64,000 bases of DNA from Selenomonadaceae bacterium (GCA_037189585.1 JBBCJA010000012.1:58693-122692), one strand, 5' to 3'; counted from the first letter of the stretch, positions 32,372-55,902 are shown. Notes: generated by a model not told the origin, from the sequence alone. A program made the numbers and translations.

Positions 32372-32426
32372 GAGGCTAGCAAAGCTTCCTTGCGGCCAGC
32401 TTTCGTCTATATTACGGAGCGGTAAT
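32372..32426. repeat. Dispersed intergenic repeat unit (copy E)
   Basis: GCAAAGCTTCCTTGCGGCCAGCTTTCGTCTATATTACGGAGCGGTAATC. Confidence 0.6.
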
Positions 32427-32624
32427 CTCCGCCTTAGGTGGCCAAGGTCGACCAACTCCGCGGCGACTCGGAGCGAGTGGACGTGACTCGAGCTGGCTGG
32501 ACTCTCGTATCGGTTGGAGAGGCGACGAGGGTTCCATCAGCGACACCTGACCCAGAAGGCAGGAGCCGGACAGCAACCTCGACGTGCGACAGGCATCGAC
32601 TGTAGGTGACTCGAAATCCAAGCG

Positions 32625-38437: not shown

Positions 38438-39319
38438 CTAGCCTGAGATGGCTTTGGTCATCTGATGGAGCGCTGCCTTCTGGCGAAAGCCCAACGAGGT
38501 GTAGAGCTTGAGAAATTCCGGGTTGTCCGTCTTCCAGATCTGGCGAATCAGCTTCACTTCTGGCTGTTGCCAGGCGAATTCCAAAGCGGAGCACAAAAGA
38601 GCCACGCCGTAGCCGTGACGCCTGTAGTCAGAGCGAATTCCAAAGGATTCGATGATGGCTGTCTCTTCGGCTAACTCCAGCTCCAAGAATCCAACCATCT
38701 GGCTCTCACGTTCGGCCACGAAGATATGATAATCGGGGAGCGACAGAAGGAGGTCCAGAAACTGTCGGCTGCGAGGTTGAAATATCTTGCCGTGCAACGC
38801 GATATAAGCATCGCGATCAAAAGCCTTCCCTCCAACCACGTGGCGCAGGGTCAAGCCGGGAACTTCCGGCTTCCCGCCCTGATACGGCTGGTCGCAAGTC
38901 ACGATAAGCTGAGTGCTTCCCTGCTTGAAACCCAATCTTTTCAGAAACTTCTCGCCCAGCCTGTTCTCGTCTTCTAAAAGAACGGAGACGGTGGAGACCC
39001 GCCGCGAGCGCATCAGGTCGGCGAGTTCGTGCCAGAGCCTCTCCCCCAATCCCTGGCCTCGCTCGGAATAAGCCACAACCGGCCCATCCATACGGGCGTG
39101 CCCGTCAGATGGGGTGGAGTAACCGCAGAAGCCTAATAGGTCGCCCTTTTGGCTTTCCACTACGAGATAGTCTTTTTTGGGATCGCCACCTCTTTCAGAG
39201 ATCTCGGCCTTGAGGCGATCAGGAGTCAAACCGGAAAGTCTAGCGGAATCCCGGTAGGTCTGATTAAGAAGGTCGGCGACGGGCAGATAATCGGAGGCTT
39301 GGAAATGACGGATGATCAT
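38438..39319 (-). CDS. Tandem-GNAT N-acetyltransferase (MshD-like architecture)
   Basis: Two acetyl-CoA-binding motifs: RGQGLGERLWHEL and RRHGYGVALL. Confidence 0.7.
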   Translation of the reverse strand: MIIRHFQASDYLPVADLLNQTYRDSARLSGLTPDRLKAEISERGGDPKKDYLVVESQKGDLLGFCGYSTPSDGHARMDGPVVAYSERGQGLGERLWHELADLMRSRRVSTVSVLLEDENRLGEKFLKRLGFKQGSTQLIVTCDQPYQGGKPEVPGLTLRHVVGGKAFDRDAYIALHGKIFQPRSRQFLDLLLSLPDYHIFVAERESQMVGFLELELAEETAIIESFGIRSDYRRHGYGVALLCSALEFAWQQPEVKLIRQIWKTDNPEFLKLYTSLGFRQKAALHQMTKAISG

Positions 39320-41241
39320 GGCTTGAGTCTGATTCTTTTTCTCACCGGCTCGGACTGTCCTGTCGCCGGGTCGGCCAGTCCGGGCGGTTTGGGCCCAGGA
39401 TATTGAAAGAGTTCACAGGGGATCGTACCGTTGTAGATTTTGCGGACTCGTTCCGGCTCTTTCCCATAATGAGAGACGAAATTTTCAAACCCCGTATAAA
39501 AGTAAAGCGACCAAGTCTCGTGAAGCGGCTCGAAAACCTCAGCCATGGTTTCAGTCAACGCGGCCACCTCATCTTGAGAGGAGAGGCGTTTTCCATAGGG
39601 CGGGTTGGTGATCAACACGCCGTAACGCCGAGACGTCTCGAAGTCCGCCACATCTCGAGTTTGAAAGTGCAACCCAAGTCCCTCAAAGCCGGCTTGAGTC
39701 ACGTGTTCGCGAGCCAGTTTGAGGACGCGTCCGTCGACATCGCTACCGTAAAGACGGAGGTGCGCTCGTCGCACCTGGAGGTCACGCGCCTCTTTGTGGA
39801 CCTCCTCCCACGGCTTGCGTCCCAACCAGTCCCAGCGCTGGGAGGCAAACGAACGGTCCAAGCCGGCCGCTTTTCTCAGGCCGATACTGGCCGCTTCCAA
39901 GAGGATGGTTCCACTGCCGCACATCGGGTCGTACAATTCGCGCTCCGGGCTCCAATGGGAAAGCAGAACCAGAGCCGCGGCCACCGTCTCGCGCAGGGGC
40001 GCCTTGGCGTTGTAAGTGCGATAACCACGCCGATGGAGACCTTCACCCGAGGTGTCGATGAAAACCCGAGCCCGATTGTAGACGATAAAGACACGAATAG
40101 CGAATTTCGCACCGCTTTCCGAAAAGGCGGCTCGACCGTAGGTCTCGGACATCTTTTGAATGGCGGCCTTTTTCGCTACAGCCTGACAGGAGGAGACACT
40201 TTCGAGCTTCGACTTGGTGGTGATCGCCTCAACGGGGAACCAGGCGTCGCGTGGCAGCATGGCGGCCCAGTCGATGGCGAGCACGCCCTGGTAGAGCTCC
40301 TCGAAGTCACGACACGGAAACTCGGCCAACTGTAGCCAGACGCGGTCGGCCGTGCGCAGCCAGTAGTTGGCTTTGGCCAGGTTGTAAGGAGAGAAAGGGA
40401 AAGAGACCTGGGCGTTCTGGCGCGAGATCGGACCCAAATCCAAAGCTTCGAGCTCTCGTCCGACGGTCAATTCCAGTCCTAGAGCGCATGTCGCAACCAG
40501 CTTGAGCTGCTGATCGGCTGGAGGCTGGTTGAATTTCTCGGAGTCGGGGGCACGATAGTGCTCTCCGTCGCGGCGTCGGCTGTAACCGCCCTCGCGTCTT
40601 GCCACCGGCGCATTCTGGTTCTCGTGTCTTTGTCCGTGTTCTCGTTGGGGCGGTCGGCGAAAATCATCCCGACGCGGCCCGTCATCGCTACGAGGACCTC
40701 CATCGCGGGTATAGCCACCCTCGCGGCGCGGACCGCCCTCGCGGTTATAGCCTCCACCCTCACGGCGGGGACCACCCTCGCGGTTATAGCCTCCACCCTC
40801 GCGGCGCGGACCACCCTCGCGGTTATAGCCTCCACCCTCACGACGGGGACCACCCTCTCTGCGCGGACCGCCCTCACGATTGTAACCTCCATCCTCGCGG
40901 CGGGGTCCGCCCTCGCGGTTATAGCCTCCACCCTCACGACGGGGACCACCCTCGCGGTTATAGCCTCCGCCTTCACGACGGGGACCACCCTCGCGGTTAT
41001 AGCCTCCACCCTCGCGGCGGGGACCACCCTCGCGATTATAGCCGCCGCCCTCGCGGCGCGGACCGCCCTCCCGACTGTAGCCGCCGCCCTCACGACGGGG
41101 ACCACCCTCTCTGCGCGGGCCGCCTTCACGGCCATAGCCGCCGCCTCGGTCCTGACCTCCTTCTGGAGGTGAGCTTCTCCTCTGGCCTCGAGAGGGTCGA
41201 CGGGGGGCGTCGCCCTTGGGATCTCTATCGTGTGGCTCCAT
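39316..41241 (-). CDS. THUMP-domain class I SAM-dependent RNA methyltransferase (RlmL/UPF0020-like) with a ~230-aa N-terminal Arg/Gly-rich tandem-repeat extension
   Basis: The C-terminal part carries DPMCGSGTILLEAA (motif I) and NPPYGKRL (motif IV). The N-terminus is about 13 copies of REGGPRREGGGYN. No alternative start is available at the THUMP boundary, which is encoded CTC-AAG-CTG. Confidence 0.65.
   Translation of the reverse strand: MEPHDRDPKGDAPRRPSRGQRRSSPPEGGQDRGGGYGREGGPRREGGPRREGGGYSREGGPRREGGGYNREGGPRREGGGYNREGGPRREGGGYNREGGPRREGGGYNREGGPRREDGGYNREGGPRREGGPRREGGGYNREGGPRREGGGYNREGGPRREGGGYNREGGPRREGGYTRDGGPRSDDGPRRDDFRRPPQREHGQRHENQNAPVARREGGYSRRRDGEHYRAPDSEKFNQPPADQQLKLVATCALGLELTVGRELEALDLGPISRQNAQVSFPFSPYNLAKANYWLRTADRVWLQLAEFPCRDFEELYQGVLAIDWAAMLPRDAWFPVEAITTKSKLESVSSCQAVAKKAAIQKMSETYGRAAFSESGAKFAIRVFIVYNRARVFIDTSGEGLHRRGYRTYNAKAPLRETVAAALVLLSHWSPERELYDPMCGSGTILLEAASIGLRKAAGLDRSFASQRWDWLGRKPWEEVHKEARDLQVRRAHLRLYGSDVDGRVLKLAREHVTQAGFEGLGLHFQTRDVADFETSRRYGVLITNPPYGKRLSSQDEVAALTETMAEVFEPLHETWSLYFYTGFENFVSHYGKEPERVRKIYNGTIPCELFQYPGPKPPGLADPATGQSEPVRKRIRLKP
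40650..41165. repeat. Coding tandem repeat with a 39-bp period (about 13 copies) encoding the REGGPRREGGGYN array
   Basis: The 39-nt unit ACCCTCGCGGTTATAGCCTCCACCCTCGCGGCGCGGACC is reiterated. The overlapping ORFs on other frames and strands are artefacts of the repeat. Confidence 0.7.
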
Positions 41242-41937: not shown

Positions 41938-43098
41938 ATGGTGTTGACCGGGAGCGTCATGTTCGTGCTGCTTCCCGATTATCTTCAAGCTCAACATATG
42001 ACCAAGTCCAAGATTGGGCTTATTGATGGAAGTTTTTGGCTCATCTCCATTTTCGTCCAACCCTGGCTAGGCCAACGCCTCGATAAAGATGGACGTAAGC
42101 TGTACCTGCTTCTAGGCTCCTTCCTGATGGCGTTGGCGGCGGCCTCCTACGCCTTTGTTCCGGTCGAGTTAGTTCCGATGCTCGTAGCACGCCTTATTCA
42201 TGGCTTCGGTTTCGCGTGCTATCTCACCGCCAGCTGGACCTGGGTGGCGGATTTCTCTCCGCCTAGCAAGGTGGGTCAATTCTTTGGAATCTTTGGGATC
42301 TCTGGAATGTTGGCTGGTGCCATCGGCCCAGGCGCGGCCGAATACGTGGTCGCGCGTGACAATTTCGACCACCTCTTTTTCTGGGGTGCTGGCGCCATCT
42401 TCACCGGATGTCTGGTCCTCACGACCCTATCGGATCGAGTTCCAGAGCCTACGAGCAAGGTCAAACCGCCGGACTTTTTCAGCCTGGTTCGAGCTCAGAG
42501 TCTGCGCGGGATGGTTATAGGCTCGATAGCTTTCGGGATCGCGATAGGCAGCCTTTTCGCTTTCATCGCTCCTTACCTGACAACTCTGGAACTCGATGGA
42601 GTCGGTTGGATGTTCGCCGCCACCACTCTGGCCTCGGGGGCTAGCCGCATTTACGCCGGTCAAATGACCGATCGCCTGGGCCCGGCCAAAATGATCGGAC
42701 CATCGATTTTTCTACTGGCCGTCGGATGCTATGGGCTCGCCCACGTGGGTGATGCCGGTAGGTACGCCATGGCAGTCCTCGTCGCCTCAGGCCTCTCGGC
42801 CGGACTAGGTTACGGGGTGATCTACCCAGCGCTCAACGCCGTGGCCATCGAGCGACTGGACTCGGCGACACGGGGACGCGGTCTGGCTTTGGTCACCGCC
42901 TCCGTCGACTCGGGAAGCTTCACCGGAGCGGCGGTGTCGGGCTTTGTCGCCGACCATTGGGGTTTCCCTGTGGCTTTCCAGACCATCTCTATACTGCTAG
43001 TTTTGTTTCTCGTGGGTTTCGCGAACGCGGAAAGGCGTAGCGGAAAACTTCGTGTCGCTACGTCCGATGAGGAGGAAACATCCCCTCCAGGCGAATGA
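41938..43098 (+). CDS. MFS transporter
   Basis: 12 predicted TM segments and MFS loop motifs (GQRLDKDGRK between TM2 and TM3). Confidence 0.75.
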   Translation: MVLTGSVMFVLLPDYLQAQHMTKSKIGLIDGSFWLISIFVQPWLGQRLDKDGRKLYLLLGSFLMALAAASYAFVPVELVPMLVARLIHGFGFACYLTASWTWVADFSPPSKVGQFFGIFGISGMLAGAIGPGAAEYVVARDNFDHLFFWGAGAIFTGCLVLTTLSDRVPEPTSKVKPPDFFSLVRAQSLRGMVIGSIAFGIAIGSLFAFIAPYLTTLELDGVGWMFAATTLASGASRIYAGQMTDRLGPAKMIGPSIFLLAVGCYGLAHVGDAGRYAMAVLVASGLSAGLGYGVIYPALNAVAIERLDSATRGRGLALVTASVDSGSFTGAAVSGFVADHWGFPVAFQTISILLVLFLVGFANAERRSGKLRVATSDEEETSPPGE

Positions 43099-44050
43099 GC
43101 AGAGTCTTGAGATTGCAGGACTCCGTGACCGCTCCCAGATCTTCGGCCGCCTTCGGCATGGCGGAAACGCCCGCCGTCAGGGAAGACTGGCCCAAAGTTA
43201 AGCCTCCTGCTTGGCGTAGCTCCAGAAGGCCCTGTGCTCCGTCCCGTCCCATCCCGGACAGAACCACCCCCACGGTGGAATGAGGATGAGAGATAGCAAG
43301 AGATTGAAACAGCCGACTGGCCGAGGGACAATGGCCGTCCTGCTTTCGACTGTCGGTCAAAGAGACGGTGAAGTTTCCCACTTCCAAATGACGCCCATGC
43401 GGAGCCACCAGGCATTTCCCTGTGGCGATAGGGGCTCCGCTGGTCGCCACTTCGACCTCCCAGCCCGTGGTGCGGGAAAGCCAACGTGCGAAGTTTTCCT
43501 CGCCCCCCTCGGGAAGATGCTGTACCACAAAACAGGACAGATCCCGACCGACCAACCGCGCCAGAATGCTTTCCAGAACTTGAGGGCTTCCCGAGGAAGC
43601 TCCGACGGCCAAAATTCTCCGATTTCCAGGAGGGCCGCGACGCGGGTCGCGGCGACGAAAAACCTTGACCGAGCTCATGATCACGAGCTGGTTGAGGAGC
43701 TGCTCCAACGCCTCCTCACTCGGCTCGAGCGAAAGCCCTTTCTCCACCACCGAAACCACCCCGGCCTCCTCCGCCGAGGGAGACCAAAACGAGGCTGAGG
43801 CGGAGAACAAGACGACCGGGACGGGATAGAGGCGGAGAAGCTTCTGTACTGTTTCCGGTCCGGACATCCCCGGAAGCTGGGCATCCATGGTGACGACATG
43901 AGGCTGGACGAAACCGACGGACTCCAAGAGCTCCTCCCCTCGCGAGTAGGCTCCAACAACCATCAGACGAGGATGAGAGTCGATACAGGCCCGTAGGTAC
44001 TCGCGCTGAAAAGCGGAGTCCTCGACGATGGCGACTCGGATCCTCTTCAC
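43058..44050 (-). CDS. cheB: Chemotaxis response regulator protein-glutamate methylesterase
   Basis: N-terminal REC domain (VAIVEDS ... TMDAQLPGMSG) plus a CheB methylesterase domain (GASSGSPQ ... TAGVSAMP). Confidence 0.85.
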   Translation of the reverse strand: MKRIRVAIVEDSAFQREYLRACIDSHPRLMVVGAYSRGEELLESVGFVQPHVVTMDAQLPGMSGPETVQKLLRLYPVPVVLFSASASFWSPSAEEAGVVSVVEKGLSLEPSEEALEQLLNQLVIMSSVKVFRRRDPRRGPPGNRRILAVGASSGSPQVLESILARLVGRDLSCFVVQHLPEGGEENFARWLSRTTGWEVEVATSGAPIATGKCLVAPHGRHLEVGNFTVSLTDSRKQDGHCPSASRLFQSLAISHPHSTVGVVLSGMGRDGAQGLLELRQAGGLTLGQSSLTAGVSAMPKAAEDLGAVTESCNLKTLLIRLEGMFPPHRT

Positions 44051-45912
44051 AAAAGCTCCTCCACCAGTCCGATAAGGCGCTCTTGAGAGAAGTTCTGCTT
44101 GCCCAAGCAGCGGTCGGCCCCCAGAGCGGAAGCTTTCTCGAAAGTCGCCACATCATCGATGGAAGTCAGTAAGATAAAGGGGACATCGGCTGTTCGAGCG
44201 TCGGCCCGGAACTGCTCCAAAAATTCCAATCCGTCGAGGTTGGGCATCTGGTAGTCGCTAACCACCAGAGCCACGTTCTCGCTTCGTGACGTCTCCAGGC
44301 CCTCCAAACCATCACGAGCGACCAGGACCCGGTATCCTTGACTAGTCAGAATCCCGCTTACCAGGGTTCTGGTAGTGACCGAGTCATCGACCACCAGCAG
44401 CAGCGGTCCGGCAGCCTCCGCAACCCCTCCCCCGGAATATACTGGAACTTCTCGACCTTCCTCTTGTAAGGCCCTCAGGGAGATCACCGGGACGGGACGC
44501 CCACGGGTCGGTGTGACCCCAATGATGGCTCTGTCTAGACTGGAAAAGCCGACCAAAGGTCGCACTAAAGCCTCGTCGAAGTCACCCAGGACGTCGATAC
44601 CGACAGCCGCTGACTCATCCTCGTCATGTTTCCAAAGCAAGGCGTAATGGCTCTTAGCGGGCACGGCGGGGTAACCCAGGACGCTGGCCAACTCCCCCAG
44701 CCAGCGCATCTTTCCTTGGGACGATTTGACGTCGCTTACCGCCAAAAGCTCGGAACTCAGAACCGCCAGCTCTTGCCCGCCTGAGGTAACCCGCAACACC
44801 GAGCGCATCTGCCAACCCGCGGGAATTTCGAGACGAAAGGTGGTGCCGCTCGGTCCGCTATCCACCGCGACCGTACCGTTGAGTCGCTGTGCTGTTTCAG
44901 CCACCACCGAAAGACCCATACCGCGCCCGGCGGTCAGGTCGGCCTGTCCTCTAGTGGAAAGCCCGGGAAAAAAGATCCATTGCTGACGCTCCTGGACCGT
45001 CAATTCGTTCCAGCCCGCCTCGTCGAGGTGTCCAGCTCCAATCACCGCGGACTTGAGACGTTCCAGGTTCAACCCTCCACCGTGGTCGGAAACGGAGAGC
45101 TCGAGAAACGAATCTCGGCGCCGATAGTCAAGTTCCAACCCGCCCGAGTCCCCCGGTGTCCCATGGCTTACCGCGTTTCCGACCAGATGGATCAGAGCCG
45201 GGCGTAGAGCTAGCACGGTCTCTCTTTCGAGCTGGTCAGGCGCGACCCTGACCGTCACCCGCACCTGCTTAGCGTTCTCGACAGCCACTCTTCGAGCCAA
45301 CTCGGGAAGACCCGAAAAGAGCTCATAAGAGGGAACGAGAGCCATTTTCCTAGCTCCCTCACGGATCGCCTTCATCCGTTCGATGAGCAACGTCAAGGAG
45401 GCGCTCACGACTTGCGTCGAGGGCGCCTCGTTCTCGTTTAACCCCTCGGCCAGCTCCTCACCCATCCCCAAAAGCTCGTCGAGCGCCAACAGGAGCTCAT
45501 AGGCCGAGGTTCCGCTAGCTTCCCTAGGGCGACCCGTGACAGCCTTCATTTCCATCGAGTCTCCGAAGACTTCTTCGGATCCATCCGTCTCTTGATCATC
45601 GAGGGCGGAAGCCACCGCCTCTTCCAGATCCCACAACTCATCGAGAAAACGCTCCGGTTTTGTCCGCGTTTTCAAGGCCCCCATCACCAACTCCTCAAGG
45701 GCGTGAACCCTCTCCGGCAGACCGGGAAGCTGGAGCAATCTCACACTTCCCTTGATGGTATGAAGCTCACGGCGAAGATCGGGCAAGCCGGTCATCTCGG
45801 TCTGGGCATCTGGCGAATAGGCGTCCCAATCCCTCCGAACAGCGGCCATTTGACCTGCGAACTCCCCACGAAAGGCCTCAAGGAGCGAACTCTGGACCTG
45901 CTCCCTTTTCAT
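44047..45912 (-). CDS. cheA: CheA-type histidine kinase with a C-terminal receiver domain (CheA-REC hybrid). Start at MKREQVQ, ATGA-coupled to the upstream cheW.
   Basis: HPt domain (LHTIKGSVRLL), HATPase (HLVGNAVSHGTPG ... DHGGGL ... GRGMGLSVV), a CheW-like domain, and a REC domain (LLVVDDSVTTR ... DYQMPNLDG). The 123-aa N-terminal extension of the track ORF overlaps cheW and is rejected. Confidence 0.85.
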   Translation of the reverse strand: MKREQVQSSLLEAFRGEFAGQMAAVRRDWDAYSPDAQTEMTGLPDLRRELHTIKGSVRLLQLPGLPERVHALEELVMGALKTRTKPERFLDELWDLEEAVASALDDQETDGSEEVFGDSMEMKAVTGRPREASGTSAYELLLALDELLGMGEELAEGLNENEAPSTQVVSASLTLLIERMKAIREGARKMALVPSYELFSGLPELARRVAVENAKQVRVTVRVAPDQLERETVLALRPALIHLVGNAVSHGTPGDSGGLELDYRRRDSFLELSVSDHGGGLNLERLKSAVIGAGHLDEAGWNELTVQERQQWIFFPGLSTRGQADLTAGRGMGLSVVAETAQRLNGTVAVDSGPSGTTFRLEIPAGWQMRSVLRVTSGGQELAVLSSELLAVSDVKSSQGKMRWLGELASVLGYPAVPAKSHYALLWKHDEDESAAVGIDVLGDFDEALVRPLVGFSSLDRAIIGVTPTRGRPVPVISLRALQEEGREVPVYSGGGVAEAAGPLLLVVDDSVTTRTLVSGILTSQGYRVLVARDGLEGLETSRSENVALVVSDYQMPNLDGLEFLEQFRADARTADVPFILLTSIDDVATFEKASALGADRCLGKQNFSQERLIGLVEELL

Positions 45913-46388
45913 CCGGCGGTCTCCTCGGAGGCGAATCTCTCCAAGAAAGCCACCCGGGCCCCTTCCGAAGTTCGCCCCGAAGACCAGGGATGGCTGTCCT
46001 TGGTGAGAGCCTCGGGGTCGACCGACACCGCGATCAGGTCTTCCGAGACTCGGACGGCTACTGGCGCGTGGCGCAAAAGGAGAAGCAGACCTTGAGATGT
46101 CGGACTTCTGAGCTGGTGTCCCCCGACCAGCGTCTGCCAGCACAAAACCGGCAGCGCCGTCGTGCCGTGGCATACCATTCCCAGACAAGGCCAGGATTCC
46201 CATCGAGCGCCGTCCGGGAAGCGGGTGAACTTGTCGAGTTTGACCAACTGGAGAACCTGGCTCTTGGGAAAGAGCCAATCCGTACCCGTTTGCTGGACCT
46301 TCAGATAACGCGCCTCGCTTCGCAGGGCGGGAGCCGCGGTCCGGGCATACATCCTGGCCCGCTCGGCGAGGATCTCTTCCTCCATCAC
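45909..46388 (-). CDS. cheW: CheW-like coupling protein
   Basis: A ~150-aa CheW fold pattern (ARYLKVQQTGTDWLFPKSQVLQLVKL ... PVLCWQTLVGG) flanked by ATGA overlaps. Confidence 0.65.
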   Translation of the reverse strand: MMEEEILAERARMYARTAAPALRSEARYLKVQQTGTDWLFPKSQVLQLVKLDKFTRFPDGARWESWPCLGMVCHGTTALPVLCWQTLVGGHQLRSPTSQGLLLLLRHAPVAVRVSEDLIAVSVDPEALTKDSHPWSSGRTSEGARVAFLERFASEETAG

Positions 46389-47464
46389 GCTCTTCCCTTC
46401 TCCAGACGCTCTCGCAGGCGAGCGGCGGCCGAACTCAACTGGTCGACGGACAGTCCGTTGCGCTCGGTGAAGGCTAAAATACTGGGATCATCCTCTCGAT
46501 AGAGGGCGAAAAACTTTCTTAAGGCCGACACGGCCTCATTGGACTGGTGCAATTCGTCGTGAAGACGGGCGGAAAAATAGAAGACCAGCGAGGAATGCGG
46601 GTCCGAATCCTCGGCTTCTTGAAACTTTCGCCCAGCTTCCTCCAACTTGCCCATGGCGTGTAGGCGCAACCCTTCCTGAAAGGGGCCGGGACACAAAGCT
46701 AGCGGCGCAACTCTTCCCGATTCGGGAAGGAGCTTTGGAGGTGAAACGAATGCCGACCGAGGTTCCTTGACGAAAATCGCGCTTCTGGCCGACCACATGC
46801 GGAGTTCGGGGTGCTGCAGTCCGAAAAAAGCCTCGGGAAACCCGAGCACCAGCAGCCCACCCACCTCGAGACGCTCCACCAGGCGAGACAGAATCTCCCG
46901 AGCTTTAGCTTCGTCGAAGTAGATCAGGACGTTGCGACAAAAAATAACATCCCAACGTCGGGCCATGCCTGGTCCGTGATCGAGATTGAGATTTTCCAAC
47001 TCGAAGGTCACCAGACTCGCCAAATGAGGCTGAACTTTCCACTGATTCTCCAAGGGCCGAAAATACCGTTGCCGCTCCTCTGAAGTAAGGCGCTCTAGTC
47101 GGCTCTCTCTGTACACTCCCTCTCGAGCCTCAGCGATGCGCGCCGCGGAGATGTCCGTTCCCAGGACACGACCCATTCGACGGGTTCGGTCTAGCATAAT
47201 GGCGATGCTATAGGCCTCGCAGCCTGTAGAGCATCCGGCCGACCAGAGGCGAAGCGAAGAGGTCGCGCTCAGGTCCCGTAAGTAGCCTTCGAAGGCTTTG
47301 CACTGATCGGGATGACGGAAAAAGTAAGTCTGGCCGTTAGTCAGGTGCGCCAGTAGCTCCTCGCGGCTCGCGTTCGGTAGTTTTCTAGCCAGGATGGCCC
47401 GTGTCTGATCGGGAACGACCAATCCCAGCTCACATTCTAAGCCTTCGAGGACTTGATCAAACAT
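46385..47464 (-). CDS. cheR: CheR-type MCP methyltransferase with a C-terminal TPR-like extension
   Basis: TYFFRHP ... LRLWSAGCSTGCEAYSIAIML ... FCRNVLIYFD. Confidence 0.85.
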   Translation of the reverse strand: MFDQVLEGLECELGLVVPDQTRAILARKLPNASREELLAHLTNGQTYFFRHPDQCKAFEGYLRDLSATSSLRLWSAGCSTGCEAYSIAIMLDRTRRMGRVLGTDISAARIAEAREGVYRESRLERLTSEERQRYFRPLENQWKVQPHLASLVTFELENLNLDHGPGMARRWDVIFCRNVLIYFDEAKAREILSRLVERLEVGGLLVLGFPEAFFGLQHPELRMWSARSAIFVKEPRSAFVSPPKLLPESGRVAPLALCPGPFQEGLRLHAMGKLEEAGRKFQEAEDSDPHSSLVFYFSARLHDELHQSNEAVSALRKFFALYREDDPSILAFTERNGLSVDQLSSAAARLRERLEKGRA

Positions 47465-47948
47465 CGTCCGAGCCCACCCGTTCCAAAGCCTCGAGACGTT
47501 TCTGTTTGAGCTCGCCCGCCTTGCGCAGCCTTTCCCGCTCCTCCACCAACATCAGACCGCCCACGTTAAGTAAAAAGACGGTTTGTCCGTCCCGTTCAAA
47601 AGATGCGACATAGCATGGGGTGGGCTCGCAGGAGTGCTCGATCATGGACAGGTCATCCCAGCCGACTTCGTCGAGTCCGACGACCCTTCGCACCCGCCAG
47701 GCCATCCGTCCCTGAGGAGTGGTCACCACAAGATGGTCGCTAAGCCGAGACTCCTCAGCCTTCATACCAAGAATCCCCGCCAGCGACATCGTGGGCAGGG
47801 ACTCTTCCCCTAAGCGAAACCAGCCCTCCAGCATCTCCATGTCGCCAGGTCGCCGTTCCAGACGGGGTAAAAGTGTGACGATCTCCACATCCGCCCGGCG
47901 AAATGCGAAGGCGTGCTCCTCGGTAGAGACCAGCAGCACCGGAATCAC
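47457..47948 (-). CDS. cheW: CheW-like coupling protein (second copy)
   Basis: A 163-aa single CheW-domain-sized protein placed between the MCP and cheR genes, overlapping both by 4-8 bp. Confidence 0.6.
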   Translation of the reverse strand: MIPVLLVSTEEHAFAFRRADVEIVTLLPRLERRPGDMEMLEGWFRLGEESLPTMSLAGILGMKAEESRLSDHLVVTTPQGRMAWRVRRVVGLDEVGWDDLSMIEHSCEPTPCYVASFERDGQTVFLLNVGGLMLVEERERLRKAGELKQKRLEALERVGSDDV

Positions 47949-49570
47949 GCCGGGCCACTGCTCCCACTTTCGTAGCGTGCCATGGCGGTGTGAAGCTCCT
48001 TGGAAAGCGCGGTAAGTTCGTGGGAATCTCGCTCAAGCTCACGACTACCATTTTCGGCAGCTGTCGCGGTTTCCTGAATAGAGACCAGAGCCTCTTCCAC
48101 TTGCTTGAAGGCGTGACTCTGTTGGCGTGTGGCCGCGACGATCTGCTGAAAGGCGTCGTCACCCTTTTTAAAGGACTCCACCAGGGTTCGAATCGTCTCC
48201 TCTGTCAGCCGGCTGTTCTTGTCGCCGGACTGAGATCTCTTGACCGCTTCCTCGGCCAACATCACGGTCTTGTGAATTCCGTTACGGATTTCGGCCAGGG
48301 CGCCCTTGACTTCTACGGTGGCTTCTTTAGAACGATTTGCCAACATTCGCATCTCACTAGCCAGAACCGCGAAAGTCACACCCTCGGCACCCGCCGCGGC
48401 CGCTTGGATAGAGGCGTTGATGGCCAGAATATTGGAGCGTTCGGCCAACTCGTTAACCGAAGCCACGATGGCCTCCAGGTCCTGAGCCTTCTGGCTGAGC
48501 GCCACGATGGTGGAAGCGACTTCCTCCACGCCCTGGCGAGATTTCTCGGACAGACGAATACTTTCCTGAACCGCTTGTAGCCCTTGTCGCCCCTGGGCGC
48601 TGGTCGCACGGGACTCGCTACCGACCTCGGAGGCCCGCTCGGCGATCTGGGTGGCTGACTGAGACAGCTCTTCTAAAGTGACGGCGGTCTCCTGGACAGC
48701 GGTTGCCTGCTGAACCGAAGATGAAGCCTGTTCGGCCGAGGAGCGGGCAAGGCGAGAGCTGATCTCGCGAATTTTGGTCTCGGCTTCGGTCGTACGGGCG
48801 AAAATTTTCCGTAAACCGTCGAGCATGGCGTTATAAGCTTCGGTCACGATGCCGATCTCATCGAGCACGCTGATGGCCAGCGGCTTGCCGGTCAAGTCGC
48901 CTTGCGAGATCTGACCGGCCCGTTCGACAAGGGTGTGCAGAGGGGTAAAACGTGCCGCGATCTTCCGATAAGTGACGATGGTGAAAACGGCGAATCCCAA
49001 CAGGCCTAGCGCGATAAAACCTTGGAGCCATCCTACAAGGCGACTGCTCTGGGAACGCGCGGCCACAATGGTGGAAAGAAACTCCTCTTGCATAGCGTCG
49101 ATCGCTCTGTTGATCTGATCCATCAGCTCCTTACCCTCGTTGTCGAGGACGCGCGCCCTGGCCTGCTCGGCCTTACCCGCTTCTTTCAGCTGGATGGTCT
49201 CGCTCATTTCCTGGAGCTTGGCTGTCACCCGAGGTCGCAATTCGCCGAGCCTGCGTTTTTGAGTCTCCGAAAGATTCGCCTGGCCGAGTTCTGAAAGGAG
49301 GGTCTCCGCTTCCGCTCCATAGTCGGAAATCGAAATCAGATAGTTGCGCTGTCCGGTATACAGGTAGCCACGTTGAGCGGATTCAACCAACAGCATGACG
49401 TTTCGCACCCGGGTCACTTTTTGATGGGCCTGGTTGGCGCTCACGGTCTGGTCGAAAGACTGGCTTATCGTCTGAATCAAAAGTGAGCCCAGGATTCCAA
49501 AGATCGTGAGATAGGCCAAGATCGCCAAAAACGCTCCCTGAAACAGTCGCAGAAGCGAGGTGGAATTCAT
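47945..49570 (-). CDS. Methyl-accepting chemotaxis protein (N-terminal sensor, HAMP, MCP signalling domain)
   Basis: The highly conserved signalling hairpin [22 protein letters not shown], plus 2 TM and a HAMP domain. Confidence 0.85.
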
Positions 49571-51432
49571 GCACGGTACTCCTTGATCAGCCGATTCATC
49601 GTCTCCACCAGCTCTTCAATGACGGGCGGCTTGGTCGCCACCACGTCAAAACCGGCCTGGCGGCACGCGAGGTGGTCTTCTTCGAGAATTCTAGCTGTGA
49701 GGGCCATCAAAGGCAGGCGAGGGCCCCCACGTCCTAGGAAATGGGACCTGATTTCGCGAGCCGCGGACATTCCATCGAGCTCCGGCATCTGTAGGTCCAG
49801 GATCGCCATATCGAAAACATCGGTGTCGGAAGCGCTCAGAGCATCCACGGCTTGACGGCCATTTTCCACCAGCGAAACCTCGAAACCCTGGCGCTCCAAC
49901 GAAAGCTTGAGAACCTGCCTGTTGATCGGATTGTCCTCCGCCACCAGAACACGTGGTGCACGCTCCTGGGCCGAAACGGTTGACTCCAGATGGGGCCCGA
50001 CAGACGTGACCATCCCCTCGGGGGAGAAGTCGAGAACGTTCGGATGGATCCGCGCGGTGGTGGCCACATAGCCCAAAATCTTCCGGTTTGTCCCACTCCG
50101 AAAGGAAAGTCCCCTCTCATCCCATGTCAAGGTAACGAGATCCGAGACAGGAGCGCTCTGTGAGGGCCAGTCGGCAACTCTACGGATAGCGCTTGCCAAG
50201 CCCACGTTGTCGGCCACAACTTCCAAGGCGGGCCATGACGATGAGTCCTCGGCGACCTGACGATGGCCTCGGGGCAGGTGCACCCGGAACGTCGCGCCCT
50301 GTCCTACCACTGAGTCCACCTCGATAGAACCGCCCATCAACTCCACCAGCGAACGCGTGATGGCAAGACCAAGCCCTGTCCCCTGAAAACTTCGATTGAA
50401 AGAGTCGTCGGCTTGGCGAAAAGCCTCGAAGATCTTAACTTGGTGCTCCTGAGGGATGCCCGGTCCGCTATCGGAAACTTCGATCAGAGTCGAGCCGTCC
50501 TCTTCGGAAAAGGCCAGCAAAACAAATCCCGATTCGGTGAACTTGACCGCGTTGCCGATCAAGTTGATCAAAACTTGCCGTAATTTGACTTCGTCGCCGT
50601 TTCCGAGATCGTCCCATTGACGTGGGAAAGCGGCGCCGAGAAAAAGTTTCTTGGCTCCGACCAAGGCCGGAAAGGGGGCAAATGCCTGTTCGATGAGACG
50701 AGACCAGGAAAAGCCCTGGGGAGAATACTCCATCCCTTTAGCCTCGAGCTTGGAAAAGTCAAGAACTTTGTTGATCACGTCCAGCAGATTCTCCGCGCTT
50801 TGGCGGATGTAGCGGACGTACTGGGCCGTCTCCGGCGCCAGATGGGCATCTTCGAGCAACAACCCGGAAAGTCCCAGAATACCGGTCATGGGGGTCCGAA
50901 TCTCATGCGAGACATTAGCCAAAAAAGTATCCTTGGCCCGATTGGCTTCCTCGGCCGCCGATCTCGCGGCCGCCAGCTCCACGTTCGTCTGAGTCAACGT
51001 TCGATTGGCCTTGTCCGACTGGTCCAACTGGTCTTGCAATCTAGCCTCGAGGTTTATCAACCTCTGAGCAACCCGAAGTTGAAGCTCGAGCTCCGCGGCG
51101 TCCAGAGTTTTGGAGACGAATGCATCGGCGCCAGCTTGCAGCGCCGCGAGATGGTCCTCGTGACCTTCGCGCGCGGTCATCACCACCAGATAAAGGTCAG
51201 TCAAAGAGCTTTGCTTGCGAACCCAGCGACACAGGTCCGGTCCGCTCATCCCCGGCATGACCCAATCCGTGATAACCACCTGGACAGACGGCTCACTACC
51301 AAGCGCGGCCATGGCTTCCAAAGCGTCGGCCGCTTGATGAACCACATGACCCCAAGAGCTGATCAGATCGGCAAAGGCCGTCCTAGTCGCTAGGTGGTCC
51401 TCCACCAAAAGGATGACAAGATGTCGGGTCAT
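49567..51432 (-). CDS. Hybrid sensor histidine kinase / response regulator (REC-HisKA-HATPase-REC). First gene of the chemosensory operon.
   Basis: N-terminal REC (ILLVEDH ... DWVMPGMSG), H-box [15 protein letters not shown], HATPase (GTGLGLAI), and C-terminal REC ([11 protein letters not shown] ... DLQMPELDG). Confidence 0.8.
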
Positions 51433-52078
51433 GACGCGCGATTAACTCCAGGCCAAGCGTTCCCTCGCCTGACTATTCCATCACACCGAAACGAAAACGA
51501 AGCTTTACCGAAGCGGTAGCGCCTATCGGCTTGCAAGCCACAAGCGCTACGCAGTCCGCTCCGTTTACCCTACCCACAAATCCCTTCTGGATGAGTCGAC
51601 GATGATCCTAGAAGCTCAGCCGGAAAGTCACTTGACAACCGAGTGGCTCGGTGCCGTTCGTCGGTGAGCCCCGACTGAATCCCTGTAATGGTTGAGCTTC
51701 AGGGTTCCGGCTTGCCTCACAGGCAGACGCACCACACTTCTTCGTCGACTCGGTATCCTACTACCTAACCTCTCCGACTTGCAAGCGGGACCGAGGTACC
51801 TCTTCTTCCGAACCCTAAACAATACACCAATAAATCCTAAGCCAGACGTCGCTTTTCTTTTTGGCCGAAGGACAGTTCCACCAGACGGCGTTCGGAAAAG
51901 AAACGACGAGACCGAAGACGACGCGGGCGCGGGGAACATTGGGGGCAAGGCAGCCACATCGCTCCCGGAAGATATTCGCAACGAGTCTCTTTGTGGCCCT
52001 TGCAGGTTGGGCAGCTTGATTTTTTTTCCATGTCGGGAGGTTCTCCTAGGTCCGACTCCTCCCTACTCCGTGCCTTTT

Positions 52079-52558
52079 TTAATTTGGACGACGAGAATCG
52101 CTCGCCCCTACCACCGTCAACCGGGGAATCCGGCTCGAGATCGGGGGGCTCGGACTGAGACGAGGAAGTTCCGGTTCTCGGCGCAGTTGATGCAGCCAGC
52201 TATAACGAGAAAAGCGTTCCGGTGAAGACAAGTGGACTCCGATCTCGATCCGGCCGCGCCGACTTTTGCTGTAAGCTACGGTCCCCATCGCGATATCGAG
52301 AGGTAAAGGCTCGACGGAATCAACAGGCTTGGGCAAGACTCGAATGGGCCGCCCGGCCAGGACGGCATGGTCGGTAAAAAGACGCAAACCCGTGGAGGAG
52401 ACTTCGCGCAACTGACCTTCTCCTCGCCGACCCTGGGACTCCCAGATCACCTCACAACAACAGATAAGCCGTGGCTCGGATCGCCGGTCTCTAGAAGCCG
52501 TTCGGCCTGTCCATCGTGCGATGACTCTTGAGATTCTGTTCCACAATGTCGCCATCAT
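52079..52558 (-). CDS. PilZ-domain-like (c-di-GMP-binding) protein
   Basis: RTASRDRR (RxxxR) followed about 30 aa later by EVSSTGLRLF, which resembles (D/N)xSxxG. The C-terminus is low-complexity and Pro/Ser-rich. Confidence 0.4.
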   Translation of the reverse strand: MMATLWNRISRVIARWTGRTASRDRRSEPRLICCCEVIWESQGRRGEGQLREVSSTGLRLFTDHAVLAGRPIRVLPKPVDSVEPLPLDIAMGTVAYSKSRRGRIEIGVHLSSPERFSRYSWLHQLRREPELPRLSPSPPISSRIPRLTVVGASDSRRPN

Positions 52559-52675
52559 TTACCCTCGCTTTTGAGAGAGAACCTTTGGAGGCTCTTTGTT
52601 ATATTTAAGCGGAAACTCCTAAGGATCCTGCGAATCTCGGAGGATCTCCCAGAGGGTTCCGAAAAAAACTTTGAC

Positions 52676-54064
52676 GTGAAAAGACTCGTGGCATCGTGCT
52701 CGGTTGTGATGCTAGCCTGTTTCGTTCATCCCGCCTCAACACTGCTTGCGAAGAACGCGGTCGATCTCTTCGCCCACGGCTACAGCCCCGTCAAGGCCGG
52801 GCTGTTGCCTCTATTTCTGCTCCTGGTGCTCGCACTGGACCGATCCAAGCTGCCGGCGCCTCCCTCCGTGGTTTTTCCGCTCTTTCTCGTTAACGCCGGC
52901 CTGGCTCACCTGCTAGCGGTTTTAGAACAGGTCTGGTTCACCCGACAGTTTCATCTCGAAATTTGGGAGCCAGCGATGGTCCTCAAGGACGGCTACTTCA
53001 CCGTTACCGGGATGACCCACATCCACGCCTCCAAGGTTCTCCTGTCACCACTATTTGGCGAAGTCCGAGATGTCACCGACGCCGGCTATCCTCTTAATCT
53101 CGTCTTCGGAGCCGTCCTGGCCCGCTTGCACCTACTGCTCTTCCTGTTTCTTTTGATTCTGGCTCTACTTGGTTCTGTCCGGGCTTACCGAACCTTGACG
53201 CCCGGTAAGGCGACAAGTCTTTCTTTGATCATCTTCGCCATCAGCAAGACAGCTCTCGACGGCGGGCCGTTCAGTTCTGAATTCTTGAGCGCTCTGGTCG
53301 TTCTCGTCTGGCTTCATCTCGGATATCGGAAGGCATTTGGTATGCTTGTGGTGATAGCGCTTCATCTCTGGTTGGTGGAACTGACACCCTGGGTCATGCT
53401 AGTCTGGGGATATCCCAGCAACATCTTGGCACTCTCCCTTCCAGCATTGTGGGAAAAGATACCAGCCCGAGCGAATCGTTGGCCGTTATGGGGACTGATG
53501 GGAACGGCCCTCTTTTTCTCGCCGCTCGCCGTGGGAGCTTTTTGGCCTTCCTTCGACGAGCAACCCTACGGTTTGAATCTTCTGCGCTATGGTTTGACCG
53601 AACTGCCTCCCGGGACTCGGCTCTGGATGCTCACCTCCGAGAGACCGCGGACTTCTTCCCTACTCGATGTCAGGCGGACGGCTTCGGTGGGTCCCTACAC
53701 TCAAATCGAGGGAACGGTCACAAAGCCGACGAGAGTGTTGGACCTGTGCGAGGAATATCGACTCGCGATCAGCCGAGCACCCATCGTCTGGAGCCCACAA
53801 GAATTCTCATTTTCCGCGGAGGTGCTAGCGCTCAACGAGCCGCGAAGTTCACTTGAGGATTCCCCGCTCTTGGTTTCCAGAGAAACTCTTCCAGCGGCCG
53901 ACGGATATTCTAGGGTCAAATTTCAGCTCAGGCCCGGTGCCAACCGAAGTCTCGCCTATGCCCTCCTGGGCCCACAACTGATGGTCGTTCGCCGAGGAGG
54001 CTTCCTTCCTGGCTCCACTTCACGACAGGGTCACCCAGGTTCTCGGACAAAGTCATCCCCGTGA
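52676..54064 (+). CDS. Polytopic membrane protein of unknown family (paralog A). The probable GTG start is at about 52676, not at the track ORF start 52571.
   Basis: About 8-10 TM plus a ~150-aa C-terminal soluble region. It shares the blocks AVDLFAHGYSP, VLKDGYFTVTGMTHIHASK and AISKTALDGGPFSSEFL with paralog B. Its N-terminal length matches paralog B when the start is placed at VKRLVAS. Confidence 0.5.
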   Translation: MKRLVASCSVVMLACFVHPASTLLAKNAVDLFAHGYSPVKAGLLPLFLLLVLALDRSKLPAPPSVVFPLFLVNAGLAHLLAVLEQVWFTRQFHLEIWEPAMVLKDGYFTVTGMTHIHASKVLLSPLFGEVRDVTDAGYPLNLVFGAVLARLHLLLFLFLLILALLGSVRAYRTLTPGKATSLSLIIFAISKTALDGGPFSSEFLSALVVLVWLHLGYRKAFGMLVVIALHLWLVELTPWVMLVWGYPSNILALSLPALWEKIPARANRWPLWGLMGTALFFSPLAVGAFWPSFDEQPYGLNLLRYGLTELPPGTRLWMLTSERPRTSSLLDVRRTASVGPYTQIEGTVTKPTRVLDLCEEYRLAISRAPIVWSPQEFSFSAEVLALNEPRSSLEDSPLLVSRETLPAADGYSRVKFQLRPGANRSLAYALLGPQLMVVRRGGFLPGSTSRQGHPGSRTKSSP

Positions 54065-54255
54065 GATTTTCGGAGAGAACATGGAGGCTTACCGGCAAGT
54101 GCCTCCTACTGATCGTGGGGCTAACTTTTCTGCGCTCGGCTCATCTCTTCACGCAGACCGAGCCGCGTTGGGTAGTGGCGGGCTGGCTAACGGTCCTGGG
54201 ACTGTCAGCCTGTGCCGTCTCCGTGCGAGGTCTACTCGATGGTCAGAGCGAGTAG
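54061..54255 (+). CDS. Putative 2-TM micro-protein, GTG start, GTGA-coupled
   Basis: 64 aa, hydrophobic (LLLIVGLTFL, VVAGWLTVLGLSACAV). It fills the gap between paralogs A and B exactly. Confidence 0.3.
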   Translation: MRFSERTWRLTGKCLLLIVGLTFLRSAHLFTQTEPRWVVAGWLTVLGLSACAVSVRGLLDGQSE

Positions 54256-54261
54256 ACTCCT

Positions 54262-55647
54262 GTGGCCTCTCGCTGGAAAGCTCTCATTCCGGCCCTACTG
54301 CTCCTGGTGGCCTGGTTCAGCACCGACTTCCTGCTAGTACTTAAAAGCTACGTGGATCTTCTGTGCATCGGATACTCCTCCAGTAAGACCTTGACGTTCT
54401 TACTCTTTCTCACCCTCTTGGGGGTGTTTTCGTGGATGCCGCCACTCGGGGCCGTCCGTTGGCATCGCGCCTATGCCGGGGGCCTCGGCCTTCTGCACGG
54501 ATTAGCACTAGTCGAACACACGCTCTTCGTTCGTGCCGTGGGAAGGCCGTGGTGGTCTCAGTTGATGGTGATCGGAGACGGTCACCTCACCAGCACCAAA
54601 CCCACCCATCTGCACGAACCGAAAGCCGCTCTGGCCTGGTTGACCGGATACCGCGGTGACATGCTTGATAGCGGCTCTAGCTTTCTGCCCTACTTTCCGA
54701 CCGCGCTTTTGGTCGTCCACGCCGCTCTGATCCTTTTGGTGGCCCTGCTCGGCTTTCTGATGGCTCACCAGTTTCTACGAAATCACCCGAGTGGGGCGGG
54801 ACTAACCATGGCGATGGCCGTCTTCGCGGCGGCCAAGGCGAGCATCGACGGTGGACCTTTGTCCAGCGAATCGCTCTTGCCGCTGCCCTTTATGCTACTT
54901 CTTCTCCAGGGTCGTGGCTGGCTGGTTCCCGTCCTCTCCCTCGCCACTCCGGCCATCGCCCTCTCGCTTTGGGCCTACGGAGGGGACCCGGTCTTCCAAT
55001 TTCTCAAAATTACCGGGGCGCTAGCACTTCTAGGAGCCCCTCTCCTATGGGACGTTTGTCATCGCCAGCCAGACTCCAAAAGTTTTCTGCTCGCGACCGC
55101 CGTCACGTTATGGGTCCTCGCTGTTCCACTGCTGACCTTCCTCGGATCGGGACAAGCCAGGCGTCCACCTTTCCCTCTGGGAACGTTGCGCTACTTACAC
55201 CGGCGCCTGGAACCGGGACAGACGGTCTATCTCCATCATCGACAACCTCTCAAGCCACGGGCGGACGCTCCCTACCAACCGGTCCGGACCTACCGCGGTC
55301 GCCACCTGTGGACCAGCGAGGTCAAGCTTACCCGGTCGACAACAACGGCGGAGTTGACTCGAGACTTTGCCAACAATCCGCATCACTTTCCCGCCACCTG
55401 GGCCTCCGGTACCACCACTTACGAATTTGTCGCAAATGTCTCGCCAGACCAACTGAGAAGCTGGAAACCCACCGAGCATATCACCGAGTCTCACCTGACG
55501 AGCGCCGGTCCTGGACTTTCAAAGCTCGAATTGTCTCTGCGGGGTGGTGCCAACATGGATGTCGCGGTCGATAGTCTCCCGCCCGGTAACTACGTGCTCA
55601 CCCACTTTCGAATTCTCTCTCATCGGCCGGACTCCGACCCCGAATGA
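54262..55647 (+). CDS. Polytopic membrane protein of unknown family (paralog B)
   Basis: Conserved blocks YVDLLCIGYSS, VIGDGHLTSTKPTHLHEPK and AAKASIDGGPLSSESL. Same TM architecture as paralog A. Confidence 0.5.
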   Translation: MASRWKALIPALLLLVAWFSTDFLLVLKSYVDLLCIGYSSSKTLTFLLFLTLLGVFSWMPPLGAVRWHRAYAGGLGLLHGLALVEHTLFVRAVGRPWWSQLMVIGDGHLTSTKPTHLHEPKAALAWLTGYRGDMLDSGSSFLPYFPTALLVVHAALILLVALLGFLMAHQFLRNHPSGAGLTMAMAVFAAAKASIDGGPLSSESLLPLPFMLLLLQGRGWLVPVLSLATPAIALSLWAYGGDPVFQFLKITGALALLGAPLLWDVCHRQPDSKSFLLATAVTLWVLAVPLLTFLGSGQARRPPFPLGTLRYLHRRLEPGQTVYLHHRQPLKPRADAPYQPVRTYRGRHLWTSEVKLTRSTTTAELTRDFANNPHHFPATWASGTTTYEFVANVSPDQLRSWKPTEHITESHLTSAGPGLSKLELSLRGGANMDVAVDSLPPGNYVLTHFRILSHRPDSDPE

Positions 55648-55898
55648 GGAATCGTCCCCGCATTGACGAAACGGAACTCATCTTGGAAGAGCACAATCCA
55701 GAAACGCCTCCAACCGGTGGATTCCAAACCGTGGAATGGTCTCAAGCCGGAAAGTCCCTGGCCGCCTGCACTGGTTTCGCCTGCGTCGCGCTAGCTCTTT
55801 ATCGCGGCGACGACCTGATCGGGGAGCTTCTTCGAACCTGGGTCGGCCTCTTCGGGGTTCTGGTCGTCGTCATCTCGTTTCGCTCCGGCCGAGCTTAA
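55644..55898 (+). CDS. Putative single-TM micro-protein, ATGA-coupled to paralog B
   Basis: 84 aa with the hydrophobic segment LAACTGFACVALALY ... VGLFGVLVVVISF. Confidence 0.3.
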   Translation: MRNRPRIDETELILEEHNPETPPTGGFQTVEWSQAGKSLAACTGFACVALALYRGDDLIGELLRTWVGLFGVLVVVISFRSGRA

Positions 55899-55902
55899 AG
55901 TT

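Follow-up and report, generated by a model that had tools for sequence, protein, structure and literature searches.

A seven-gene chemosensory operon headed by a receiver-kinase-receiver protein in an uncultured member of Xenobia

What does a complete set of chemosensory proteins control when no flagellar gene is found among its neighbours, and do a PilZ gene and a long leader encoded beside it belong to the same system? These questions are raised by the minus strand at positions 43058–52558 of a 64,000-nucleotide stretch of DNA deposited under the name Selenomonadaceae bacterium (GCA_037189585.1 JBBCJA010000012.1:58693-122692), which we refer to as the window and from whose first letter all positions are counted. 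Analysis of open reading frames (ORFs) and Pfam domains revealed nine ORFs in this interval, seven of which constitute a co-directional chemotaxis (Che) operon at 43058–51432, headed by a hybrid histidine kinase (HK) with a receiver (REC) domain at either end, as proposed in the initial annotation of the sequence; the remaining two encode a PilZ-domain protein and a small zinc-ribbon protein. The best explanation of the locus, to which we assign a probability of about 0.6, is that the seven genes form a translationally coupled operon for a non-flagellar pathway of the alternative cellular function (ACF) type, which would drive the REC-gated kinase.

Organization and class of the operon

In the direction of transcription, the operon comprises genes for a REC-HisKA-HATPase_c-REC kinase (49567–51432, 621 aa), a methyl-accepting chemotaxis protein (MCP) with 4HB/CHASE3, HAMP and MCPsignal domains (47945–49570), CheW (47457–47948, 163 aa; Pfam CheW, E=9e-12), CheR with tetratricopeptide-like repeats (CheR-TPR; 46385–47464, 359 aa; Pfam CheR, E=2e-46), a divergent CheW-like protein, CheW2 (45909–46385, 158 aa), CheA with a C-terminal REC domain (CheA-REC; 44047–45912, 621 aa; Pfam Hpt, HATPase_c and REC) and the methylesterase CheB (43058–44050, 330 aa; Pfam REC and CheB_methylest, E=4e-44). 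Starts and stops overlap along the operon by 4, 4, 8, 1–4, 4 and 4 nt, the junctions from the kinase to CheB being ATGA, GTGA, an 8-nt overlap, GTGATG, ATGA and GTGA; the overlaps of 4–8 bp described earlier hold throughout, except at the CheR/CheW2 junction, where an alternative GTG start of CheW2 at 46388 makes the overlap either 1 or 4 nt. The operon is syntenic in about ten Xenobia metagenome loci, designated here by L numbers: the same seven genes follow in the same order in L003, L004, L011 and L013–L016, with CheA identities of 45–85%, and partial copies are found in L002 (truncated) and L012 (reduced). A convergent MFS gene on the plus strand follows cheB directly, and therefore no WspR-like gene follows; the 3′ ends of the two genes share 41 nt (43058–43098), and convergent cheB/MFS overlaps of a similar kind occur in L011 and L013–L016.

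The six core genes are arranged in the wspA–F order of Pseudomonas, MCP-CheW-CheR-CheW-CheA/REC-CheB, with CheW, CheR, CheW2 and CheA occupying the WspB, WspC, WspD and WspE positions, respectively (the identity of CheW2 being weakly supported). The Wsp system combines a 40-heptad (40H) receptor, a CheA with a C-terminal REC but without a response-regulator-binding domain, CheR-TPR and two CheWs (PMC5907407, PMC11253619, PMC6391922), and the operon studied here resembles it in the length class of the receptor, the C-terminal TPR of CheR, a CheA that lacks P2 and ends in a REC domain, a pair of CheW-type proteins, and the lack of neighbouring CheY or flagellar genes. CheR-TPR clusters are of the ACF type and employ multi-domain response regulators, about 40% of which carry a HisKA and HATPase module, and phosphorylation of the REC domain has been proposed to control the kinase in such clusters (PMC3447774); CheY-like domains within CheA are found mostly in F3, F5, ACF and type IV pilus (Tfp) systems (PMC10782961). 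Using the ACF class of Wuichet and Zhulin in the form set out in PMC10782961 and PMC3868531, we consider it likely that the operon encodes a non-flagellar, ACF-type (Wsp/Che3-like) pathway, and the initial view that it serves an alternative cellular function rather than flagellar chemotaxis is upheld by these features together with the lack of motility genes among those inspected.

Indeed, the window genes that were checked for domains (most, not all, of the 64 kb) include none for flagella or pili and neither cheY nor cheZ. A REC profile run against all window ORFs of at least 70 aa recovered only the four REC domains of the operon and two OmpR-type regulators, with no single-domain REC protein in the 64 kb, which agrees with the earlier remark that cheY, cheZ and flagellar genes are missing nearby. 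Likewise, the flanks of the approximately ten syntenic loci contain no gene for flagella, pili, CheY, PilG/H or CheZ/C/X/D/V. The operon and its annotated neighbours, in the window and in the related loci, contain no GGDEF domain, and no GGDEF/EAL gene is linked to them.

The receptor has the layout TM1, periplasmic CHASE3/4HB, TM2 (TM, transmembrane segment), HAMP and a signalling domain of about 40 heptads, with no C-terminal pentapeptide. The hairpin tip lies at approximately residue 395, between an N-terminal arm of 141 aa and a C-terminal arm of 146 aa; the N-arm is 14 residues longer than that of Tsr (36H), and the alignment with a fragment of TM1143 (44H) is nearly gapless, the MCP being shorter at both ends. 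The arm lengths, the surplus over Tsr and the TM1143 alignment therefore indicate a 40-heptad receptor, a count that derives from length and indel pattern rather than from heptad-class hidden Markov models (HMMs). The tip itself (residues ~385–400) departs from the near-universal EAARAGExGRGF, with the usual Arg and GRG replaced, and bears an AAAAG signature in common with the MCPs of ACF-like clusters from Rhodospirillales (L020, 6246–7934; L021, 6499–8166). The cytoplasmic portion aligns with these MCPs, from Azospirillum and Pseudoroseomonas, without gaps and at 38–39% identity; the shared tip suggests a distinct receptor subfamily.

CheA is built of P1 (Hpt, H51), a linker, P3, P4, a divergent P5 and REC (D553; residues 506–615 of 621), with a single Hpt domain. 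An 18-sequence alignment shows the LHTxKGS motif, the N, G1 and G2 boxes and the REC residues to be invariant, and P2 is absent, P1 and P3 being separated only by a variable, gapped linker of about 60 residues. P3 and P5 are recognizable by eye, and weakly by profile, below the Pfam thresholds; P5 yields a partial match to Pfam CheW (E=0.011) and aligns with CheW1, the first CheW of the operon, in hhalign (E=7e-4). A 743-aa ORF with an upstream TTG start was also considered as cheA and rejected; the ATG at 45912 (621 aa) agrees with independent gene calls. CheB, with its N-terminal REC domain, matches an NCBIfam subfamily (E=2e-60) and displays the active-site motifs GASSG, VQH and GMGRDG by eye.

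CheW1 is conserved in the orthologous loci. The C-terminal ~130 aa of CheR match TPR_2 (E=0.0027) and TPR_19 (E=0.0049) below the gathering scores in the window copy, and TPR_19 is detected in eight of nine orthologs (best E, 3.8e-6) and TPR_2 in six; judged from these profiles, CheR is a CheR-TPR fusion with a C-terminal TPR-like extension. CheW2 is the fastest-evolving gene of the operon (23–81% identity). The window copy has no sequence match in Pfam, NCBIfam or PDB, and one of its nine orthologs matches Pfam CheW (E=0.024). Nevertheless, hhalign places it in register with the CheW1 family (residues 29–128 to 5–101), weakly (E=0.006, probability 6%), and when its low-confidence AlphaFold2 model, built with five database homologs (predicted local distance difference test (pLDDT), 46), was used as a Foldseek query, the eight best PDB matches were all CheW or CheA-P5 (probability 0.75–0.98). 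Judging from its place in the operon, the profile alignment and this low-confidence model, CheW2 probably represents a strongly diverged CheW that corresponds to WspD. Of the two CheWs claimed at the outset, the first is secure by Pfam and the second must be regarded as tentative.

The operon is not Wsp in the strict sense, because WspR, the REC-GGDEF protein, is absent: neither it nor another enzyme of cyclic di-GMP (c-di-GMP) metabolism is encoded here, and a REC-HisKA-HATPase-REC kinase heads the operon instead. Further differences are the CHASE3 periplasmic domain, CheW2 and CheA P5 being too divergent for Pfam, and the great distance between the phyla. A second relative is the Che3 system of Rhodospirillum centenum, a cascade that governs cysts, which likewise includes two CheWs, CheR, CheB, an MCP, CheA-REC and a second kinase whose N-terminal REC is its only evident input. 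However, CheS3 has the architecture REC-REC-PAS-HWE_HK and feeds a stand-alone CheY3, whereas the kinase in the window has HisKA in place of HWE, no PAS domain and an additional C-terminal REC, no CheY is encoded and the gene order differs. Because of this different kinase architecture and the lack of CheY3, the operon is not an ortholog of Che3.

The best annotated matches are ACF-like clusters from Rhodospirillales, namely those of Azospirillum ramasamyi (NZ_CP029832, DM194_RS20330-20370) and Pseudoroseomonas cervicalis (NZ_CP115854), whose proteins are 38–39% (MCP), 31% (CheA), 34% (CheB) and 35–38% (CheR) identical to those in the window. These chromid clusters share with the operon CheR-TPR, two CheWs, CheA-REC, adjacent REC/HK hybrids and the AAAAG tip, but their genes are ordered CheW-CheR(TPR)-CheW-MCP-CheA/REC, followed in Azospirillum by CheB and a DNA-binding response regulator (the Pseudoroseomonas record lists no feature after CheA) and then by REC/HK hybrid proteins. 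The kinases downstream in Rhodospirillales (HisKA-HATPase-REC, REC-REC-HK and REC-PAS-HK-REC) are about 32% identical to ours over the kinase core, a level of generic similarity.

Candidate output and competing explanations

The hybrid kinase is a soluble protein: it contains no hydrophobic or transmembrane segment and no sensor domain beyond its N-terminal REC (REC1). Nine orthologs share invariant D56, T86, K108, H176, the N, G1, F and G2 boxes, D546, T579 and K601. REC1 and the coiled linker that follows are the best-conserved segment, while about 100 residues between HATPase and the C-terminal REC (REC2) are variable. As in R. centenum, this protein is the only output candidate, and the operon probably signals through it instead of a flagellar CheY; the initial suggestion that the leading kinase participates in a phosphorelay is judged reasonable, given the experimental precedent of CheA3 acting on CheS3 (PMC3868531).

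We therefore favour, at the strength stated above, the following sequence of events. Complexes of the two-TM, CHASE3-containing 40-heptad receptor with CheW, the divergent CheW2 and the P2-less CheA-REC would assemble, and the receptor would control CheA, with CheR-TPR and CheB likely supplying methylation-based adaptation. Phosphorylated CheA (H51) could donate to CheB and to the REC domain at its own C terminus, probably a sink. It may also phosphorylate REC1 (D56) of the co-transcribed, sensor-less kinase, a step to which we give roughly even odds and for which the model is R. centenum, where CheA3 has been shown experimentally to phosphorylate REC1 of the hybrid kinase CheS3 and the REC of CheA3 acts as a phosphate sink (PMC3868531). 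Phosphorylated REC1 would then switch the HisKA/HATPase core, which would feed REC2 (D546), and REC2 in turn might signal to an unlinked Hpt protein or response regulator with a non-flagellar output.

The same genes also allow a reading in which the kinase, phosphorylating itself independently, serves not as output but as input or sink: phosphate would flow from HisKA through REC2 to CheA P1, used as an Hpt, or phosphorylated CheA would be drained through the two REC domains, and the true output would be the REC of CheA itself or an unlinked regulator. A C-terminal REC is typical of phosphorelay kinases that require an Hpt, and NCBIfam similarity links the kinase to TorS, BarA, RcsC and LuxQ; no Hpt other than CheA P1 is encoded nearby, CheA3 and CheAY2 are documented cases of a REC domain that acts as a phosphate sink (PMC3868531), and the kinase gene stands first in the operon. 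Nevertheless, we regard this arrangement as unlikely: an independent input is hard to picture for a protein whose only sensory domain is REC1, the conservation of REC1 and its coiled linker is that to be expected of a regulatory input, and in the characterized precedent phosphate goes from CheA to the kinase REC (PMC3868531). Another reading takes the operon for a flagellar or Tfp taxis system that has its CheY-like regulators and motor genes at other sites of the genome. The examined portion extends over 64 kb, L012 has a weak prepilin-type N_methyl gene close to the cluster, distant CheA-REC homologs are labelled ‘ChpA’ in some database annotations, and F6 and Tfp systems, too, use 40H receptors (PMC11253619). 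The absence of motility and CheY-type genes from the window and the syntenic flanks tells against it, as do the single Hpt of CheA, the CheR-TPR and multi-domain REC-kinase in the cluster, which are ACF hallmarks (PMC3447774), and the proximity of the core proteins to the Rhodospirillales clusters with their transcription-factor and kinase outputs; such a taxis function seems to us improbable.

We find it equally improbable that PilZ, alone or together with the zinc-ribbon protein, belongs to the chemosensory pathway itself as a c-di-GMP-responsive input or output, which the initial annotation implied. The two genes do lie on the same strand just upstream of the operon in the window, L004 and L012–L016, the window PilZ retains RRxxxR and a variant ExSxxG motif, and in each of the nine Che-bearing loci covering the region the small gene adjoins that of the kinase. 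However, the pair persists intact in three syntenic loci without the Che operon (L017–L019), the PilZ gene has an inverted orientation or another location in L011 and went undetected in L003, with the small gene staying put in both, and a poorly conserved spacer of 95–404 nt separates the pair from the operon. Moreover, RxxxR is missing from six of the 11 PilZ orthologs and, as mentioned above, no GGDEF/EAL gene is linked. Because the pair persists in L017–L019 without the operon, PilZ and the small gene are, by this comparison of loci, best treated as a separate conserved two-gene unit that borders the Che operon, not as operon members.

Several observations nonetheless weigh against an ACF-type pathway driving the kinase, and hold our confidence at the level given. 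The choice of ACF over Tfp or F classes is made from architecture and context, not from class HMMs, and the view is limited to 64 kb of the genome, beyond which CheY, flagellar and pilus genes may lie. The gap between the CheA matches is modest: about 31% identity and 144–166 bits to Rhodospirillales against 28% and 134 bits to an Acinetobacter CheA-REC. The Pfam CheW model misses CheW2 and sees CheA P5 only in part, the kinase and CheS3 are not orthologs, the operon has neither an Hpt protein nor a terminal regulator linked to it, and the direction of phosphate flow is assigned by analogy. Finally, the operon is absent or reduced in L012 and L017–L019, and is therefore dispensable.

The PilZ gene, a missed zinc-ribbon gene and the spacer

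The PilZ gene (52079–52558, minus strand; 159 aa) does not lie immediately upstream of the operon, as had been stated, being separated from it by the small gene and a 404-nt spacer. The window copy matches Pfam PilZ (E=5e-5) with a marginal score of 24 bits against a gathering cut-off of 22.5, and five of seven scanned orthologs match, with a best E-value of 5e-6. Like known PilZ c-di-GMP receptors, the window protein combines the domain match with RRSEPR, an instance of RxxxR, and a near-canonical second motif, EVSSTG; it differs from them in the Glu that replaces the usual Asp or Asn of the second motif. Both motifs are gone in several orthologs: among the 11 examined, RxxxR is kept in five and ExSxxG in eight. 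Binding of c-di-GMP by the window protein is thus plausible from its motifs but would not be a conserved property of the PilZ family here, so that the earlier description of a c-di-GMP-type PilZ stands for the Pfam match and the RRxxxR of this copy and is weakened by the marginal score and patchy motifs. The gene is linked to that of the zinc-ribbon protein and not to the Che operon.

The 650-bp untranslated region placed upstream of the operon did not survive comparison among loci, since the 646-nt gap between PilZ and the kinase contains a conserved 64-codon ORF. A six-locus alignment of the gap exposed a block of about 190 nt conserved at two of three positions, with wobble at the third codon position. 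The corresponding ORF (51837–52031, minus strand) begins at the first ATG past an in-frame stop, with AGGAG-type motifs before the start, 47 nt after the PilZ stop codon. Its 64-aa product, MEKKSSCPTCKGHKETRCEYLPGAMWLPCPQCSPRPRRLRSRRFFSERRLVELSFGQKEKRRLA, reads as a CPxC-x18-CPxC zinc ribbon followed by an Arg-rich, very basic tail. The gene is present in 12 of 12 loci that cover the position, at 80–97% amino acid identity, even where CheA is only 45% identical: L003 (4099–4287), L004 (4167–4355), L011 (4103–4294), L012 (5489–5680), L013 (1762–1950), L014 (1925–2119), L015 (4203–4397), L016 (3081–3272), L017 and L018 (8001–8180 in both), L019 (2256–2432) and the window. Because the mean proportion of synonymous differences across 66 pairs (Nei–Gojobori) is 0.75, that is, saturated, against 0.10 for nonsynonymous differences, this is, on the evidence of its substitution pattern, a real protein-coding gene; by its identity across the loci it is the most conserved gene of the neighbourhood. 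The remaining frames of the gap, including a 117-aa ORF with a TTG start (51628–51981), were rejected as non-coding, their products being Arg/Ser-rich and unconserved.

The gene has nonetheless escaped annotation: no gene call was made at this position in any of the seven loci with gene calls, three copies of the protein were found among 5.8 billion database proteins, and phmmer, run exhaustively against 1.84 billion representatives, matched one cluster. These searches found no relatives outside this Xenobia clade, and the protein has no significant match in Pfam, NCBIfam or PDB; its AlphaFold2 model (pLDDT, 51) is unusable. It is tempting to speculate that the small protein and PilZ form a c-di-GMP-responsive pair, in which the small protein would be a new nucleic-acid-binding regulator, and that in loci with a Che operon the two proteins would control transcription or translation across the downstream spacer. 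We hold this combined proposal to be very improbable; if true, an ACF chemosensory pathway would be gated by a second messenger.

The true spacer thus amounts to 404 nt (51433–51836), its counterparts in other loci being poorly conserved. The ~180-nt block next to the kinase gene (51433–51611) is conserved in close relatives only, and blastn aligns the spacer with L014 at 88% identity over spacer positions 226–277 and 314–403 and with L015, also at 88%, across its final 57 nt; this block presumably holds the operon promoter and 5′ untranslated region. By contrast, the ~225 nt directly after the small gene (51612–51836) are unique to the lineage: they are missing from L014, which is 86% identical, recur neither in the window nor in the fetched loci, and belong to no Rfam family. 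The supposed untranslated region is therefore mostly a missed gene and a lineage-specific insertion. Rfam searches of the whole window at gathering score and of the intergenic region at E≤1 returned nothing beyond a chance snoRNA match, a tRNA scan found none, and a pattern scan of 51300–52700 detected neither sigma-70 promoters nor terminators. Folding of the 404-nt spacer is unremarkable (z=-2.15), and blastn of the spacer against plasmids and all fetched loci revealed no repeat or mobile element.

Distribution in Xenobia and biological significance

The related loci identify the source organism as an uncultured member of Xenobia (Vulcanimicrobiota/Eremiobacterota; formerly Eremiobacterota/WPS-2). 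Logan assemblies of run SRR27999909 contain sequence that matches the window, and an identical CheA is also encoded on an NCBI contig; some 20 close relatives of CheA are at least 49% identical, after which identity falls to about 31%. MFS and Ank neighbours are kept after the operon in every locus of sufficient length, and RlmL, GNAT and DinB in the longer ones. Given the conserved gene order and neighbours across loci, the operon therefore looks vertically inherited.

Two kinds of departure from the complete operon were identified. In L012, a Xenobiales metagenome-assembled genome, the locus (5775–11872) retains kinase-MCP-CheW2-CheA only, with CheW1, CheR and CheB missing, and its CheA is substituted at positions that are invariant in other family members; such an operon may be decaying or may work without adaptation. 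In the JGI metagenome contigs L017, L018 and L019, none of the seven operon genes separates the small gene from the MFS gene, and the neighbourhood is otherwise kept, with the Ser/Thr kinase-periplasmic-binding-protein, PilZ, small and MFS genes in all three and Ank, RlmL, GNAT and DinB in L017 and L018. The Che-less loci are approximately as distant as L004, the deepest Che-bearing locus, and either gain or loss of the operon may account for the difference.

The surroundings of the operon vary as well. Between PilZ and the Ser/Thr kinase-periplasmic-binding-protein gene, four genes occupy ~4 kb of the plus strand (52571–56394), encoding a multi-TM protein of 451–497 aa, proteins of 461 and 84 aa and a 163-aa, weakly CarS-like protein; because the Ser/Thr kinase gene abuts PilZ directly in several relatives, this segment is, by comparison of the loci, a lineage-specific insertion. 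The RlmL/THUMP methyltransferase (39316–41241, minus strand) has 641 aa, with an N-terminal extension of ~240 aa relative to its counterparts in L011 and L012 (399–406 aa); L013 and L016 also encode long orthologs (717 and 587 aa, respectively). By domain annotation, most window genes belong to efflux, phosphate uptake, two-component, glycosyltransferase and housekeeping functions. Minus-strand segments at 1863–3248, 22129–24411 and 26788–32455 include an HTTM-domain protein, a PhoU_div/PHO4/Porin_O_P phosphate-uptake set and an RND efflux pump (OEP, CusB-like and ACR_tran), and the same stretches also hold two PMT_2 glycosyltransferases and two OmpR-type two-component pairs; none of these is related to motility.

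To specialists in chemosensory systems the operon is ordinary and unsurprising, and it does not overturn current understanding. Its added value lies in the corrected annotation, in the recognition of PilZ as a bystander and in a natural series of presence, reduction and absence. The correction concerns a small gene under strong constraint that has been missed wherever gene calls existed and whose sequence would otherwise pass for a long 5′ leader. The class Xenobia has so far been known from metagenome-assembled genomes, and the phylum has a single cultivated representative (PMC9758169). The operon adds to this poorly known class a well-conserved ACF-type pathway whose sole linked output would be a REC-HK-REC kinase, and L012 and L017–L019 provide natural reduced and null variants of what is a compact seven-gene test case. 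More generally, it supports the view that many Che-like systems serve as front ends for two-component phosphorelays, not motors (PMC3447774, PMC3868531).

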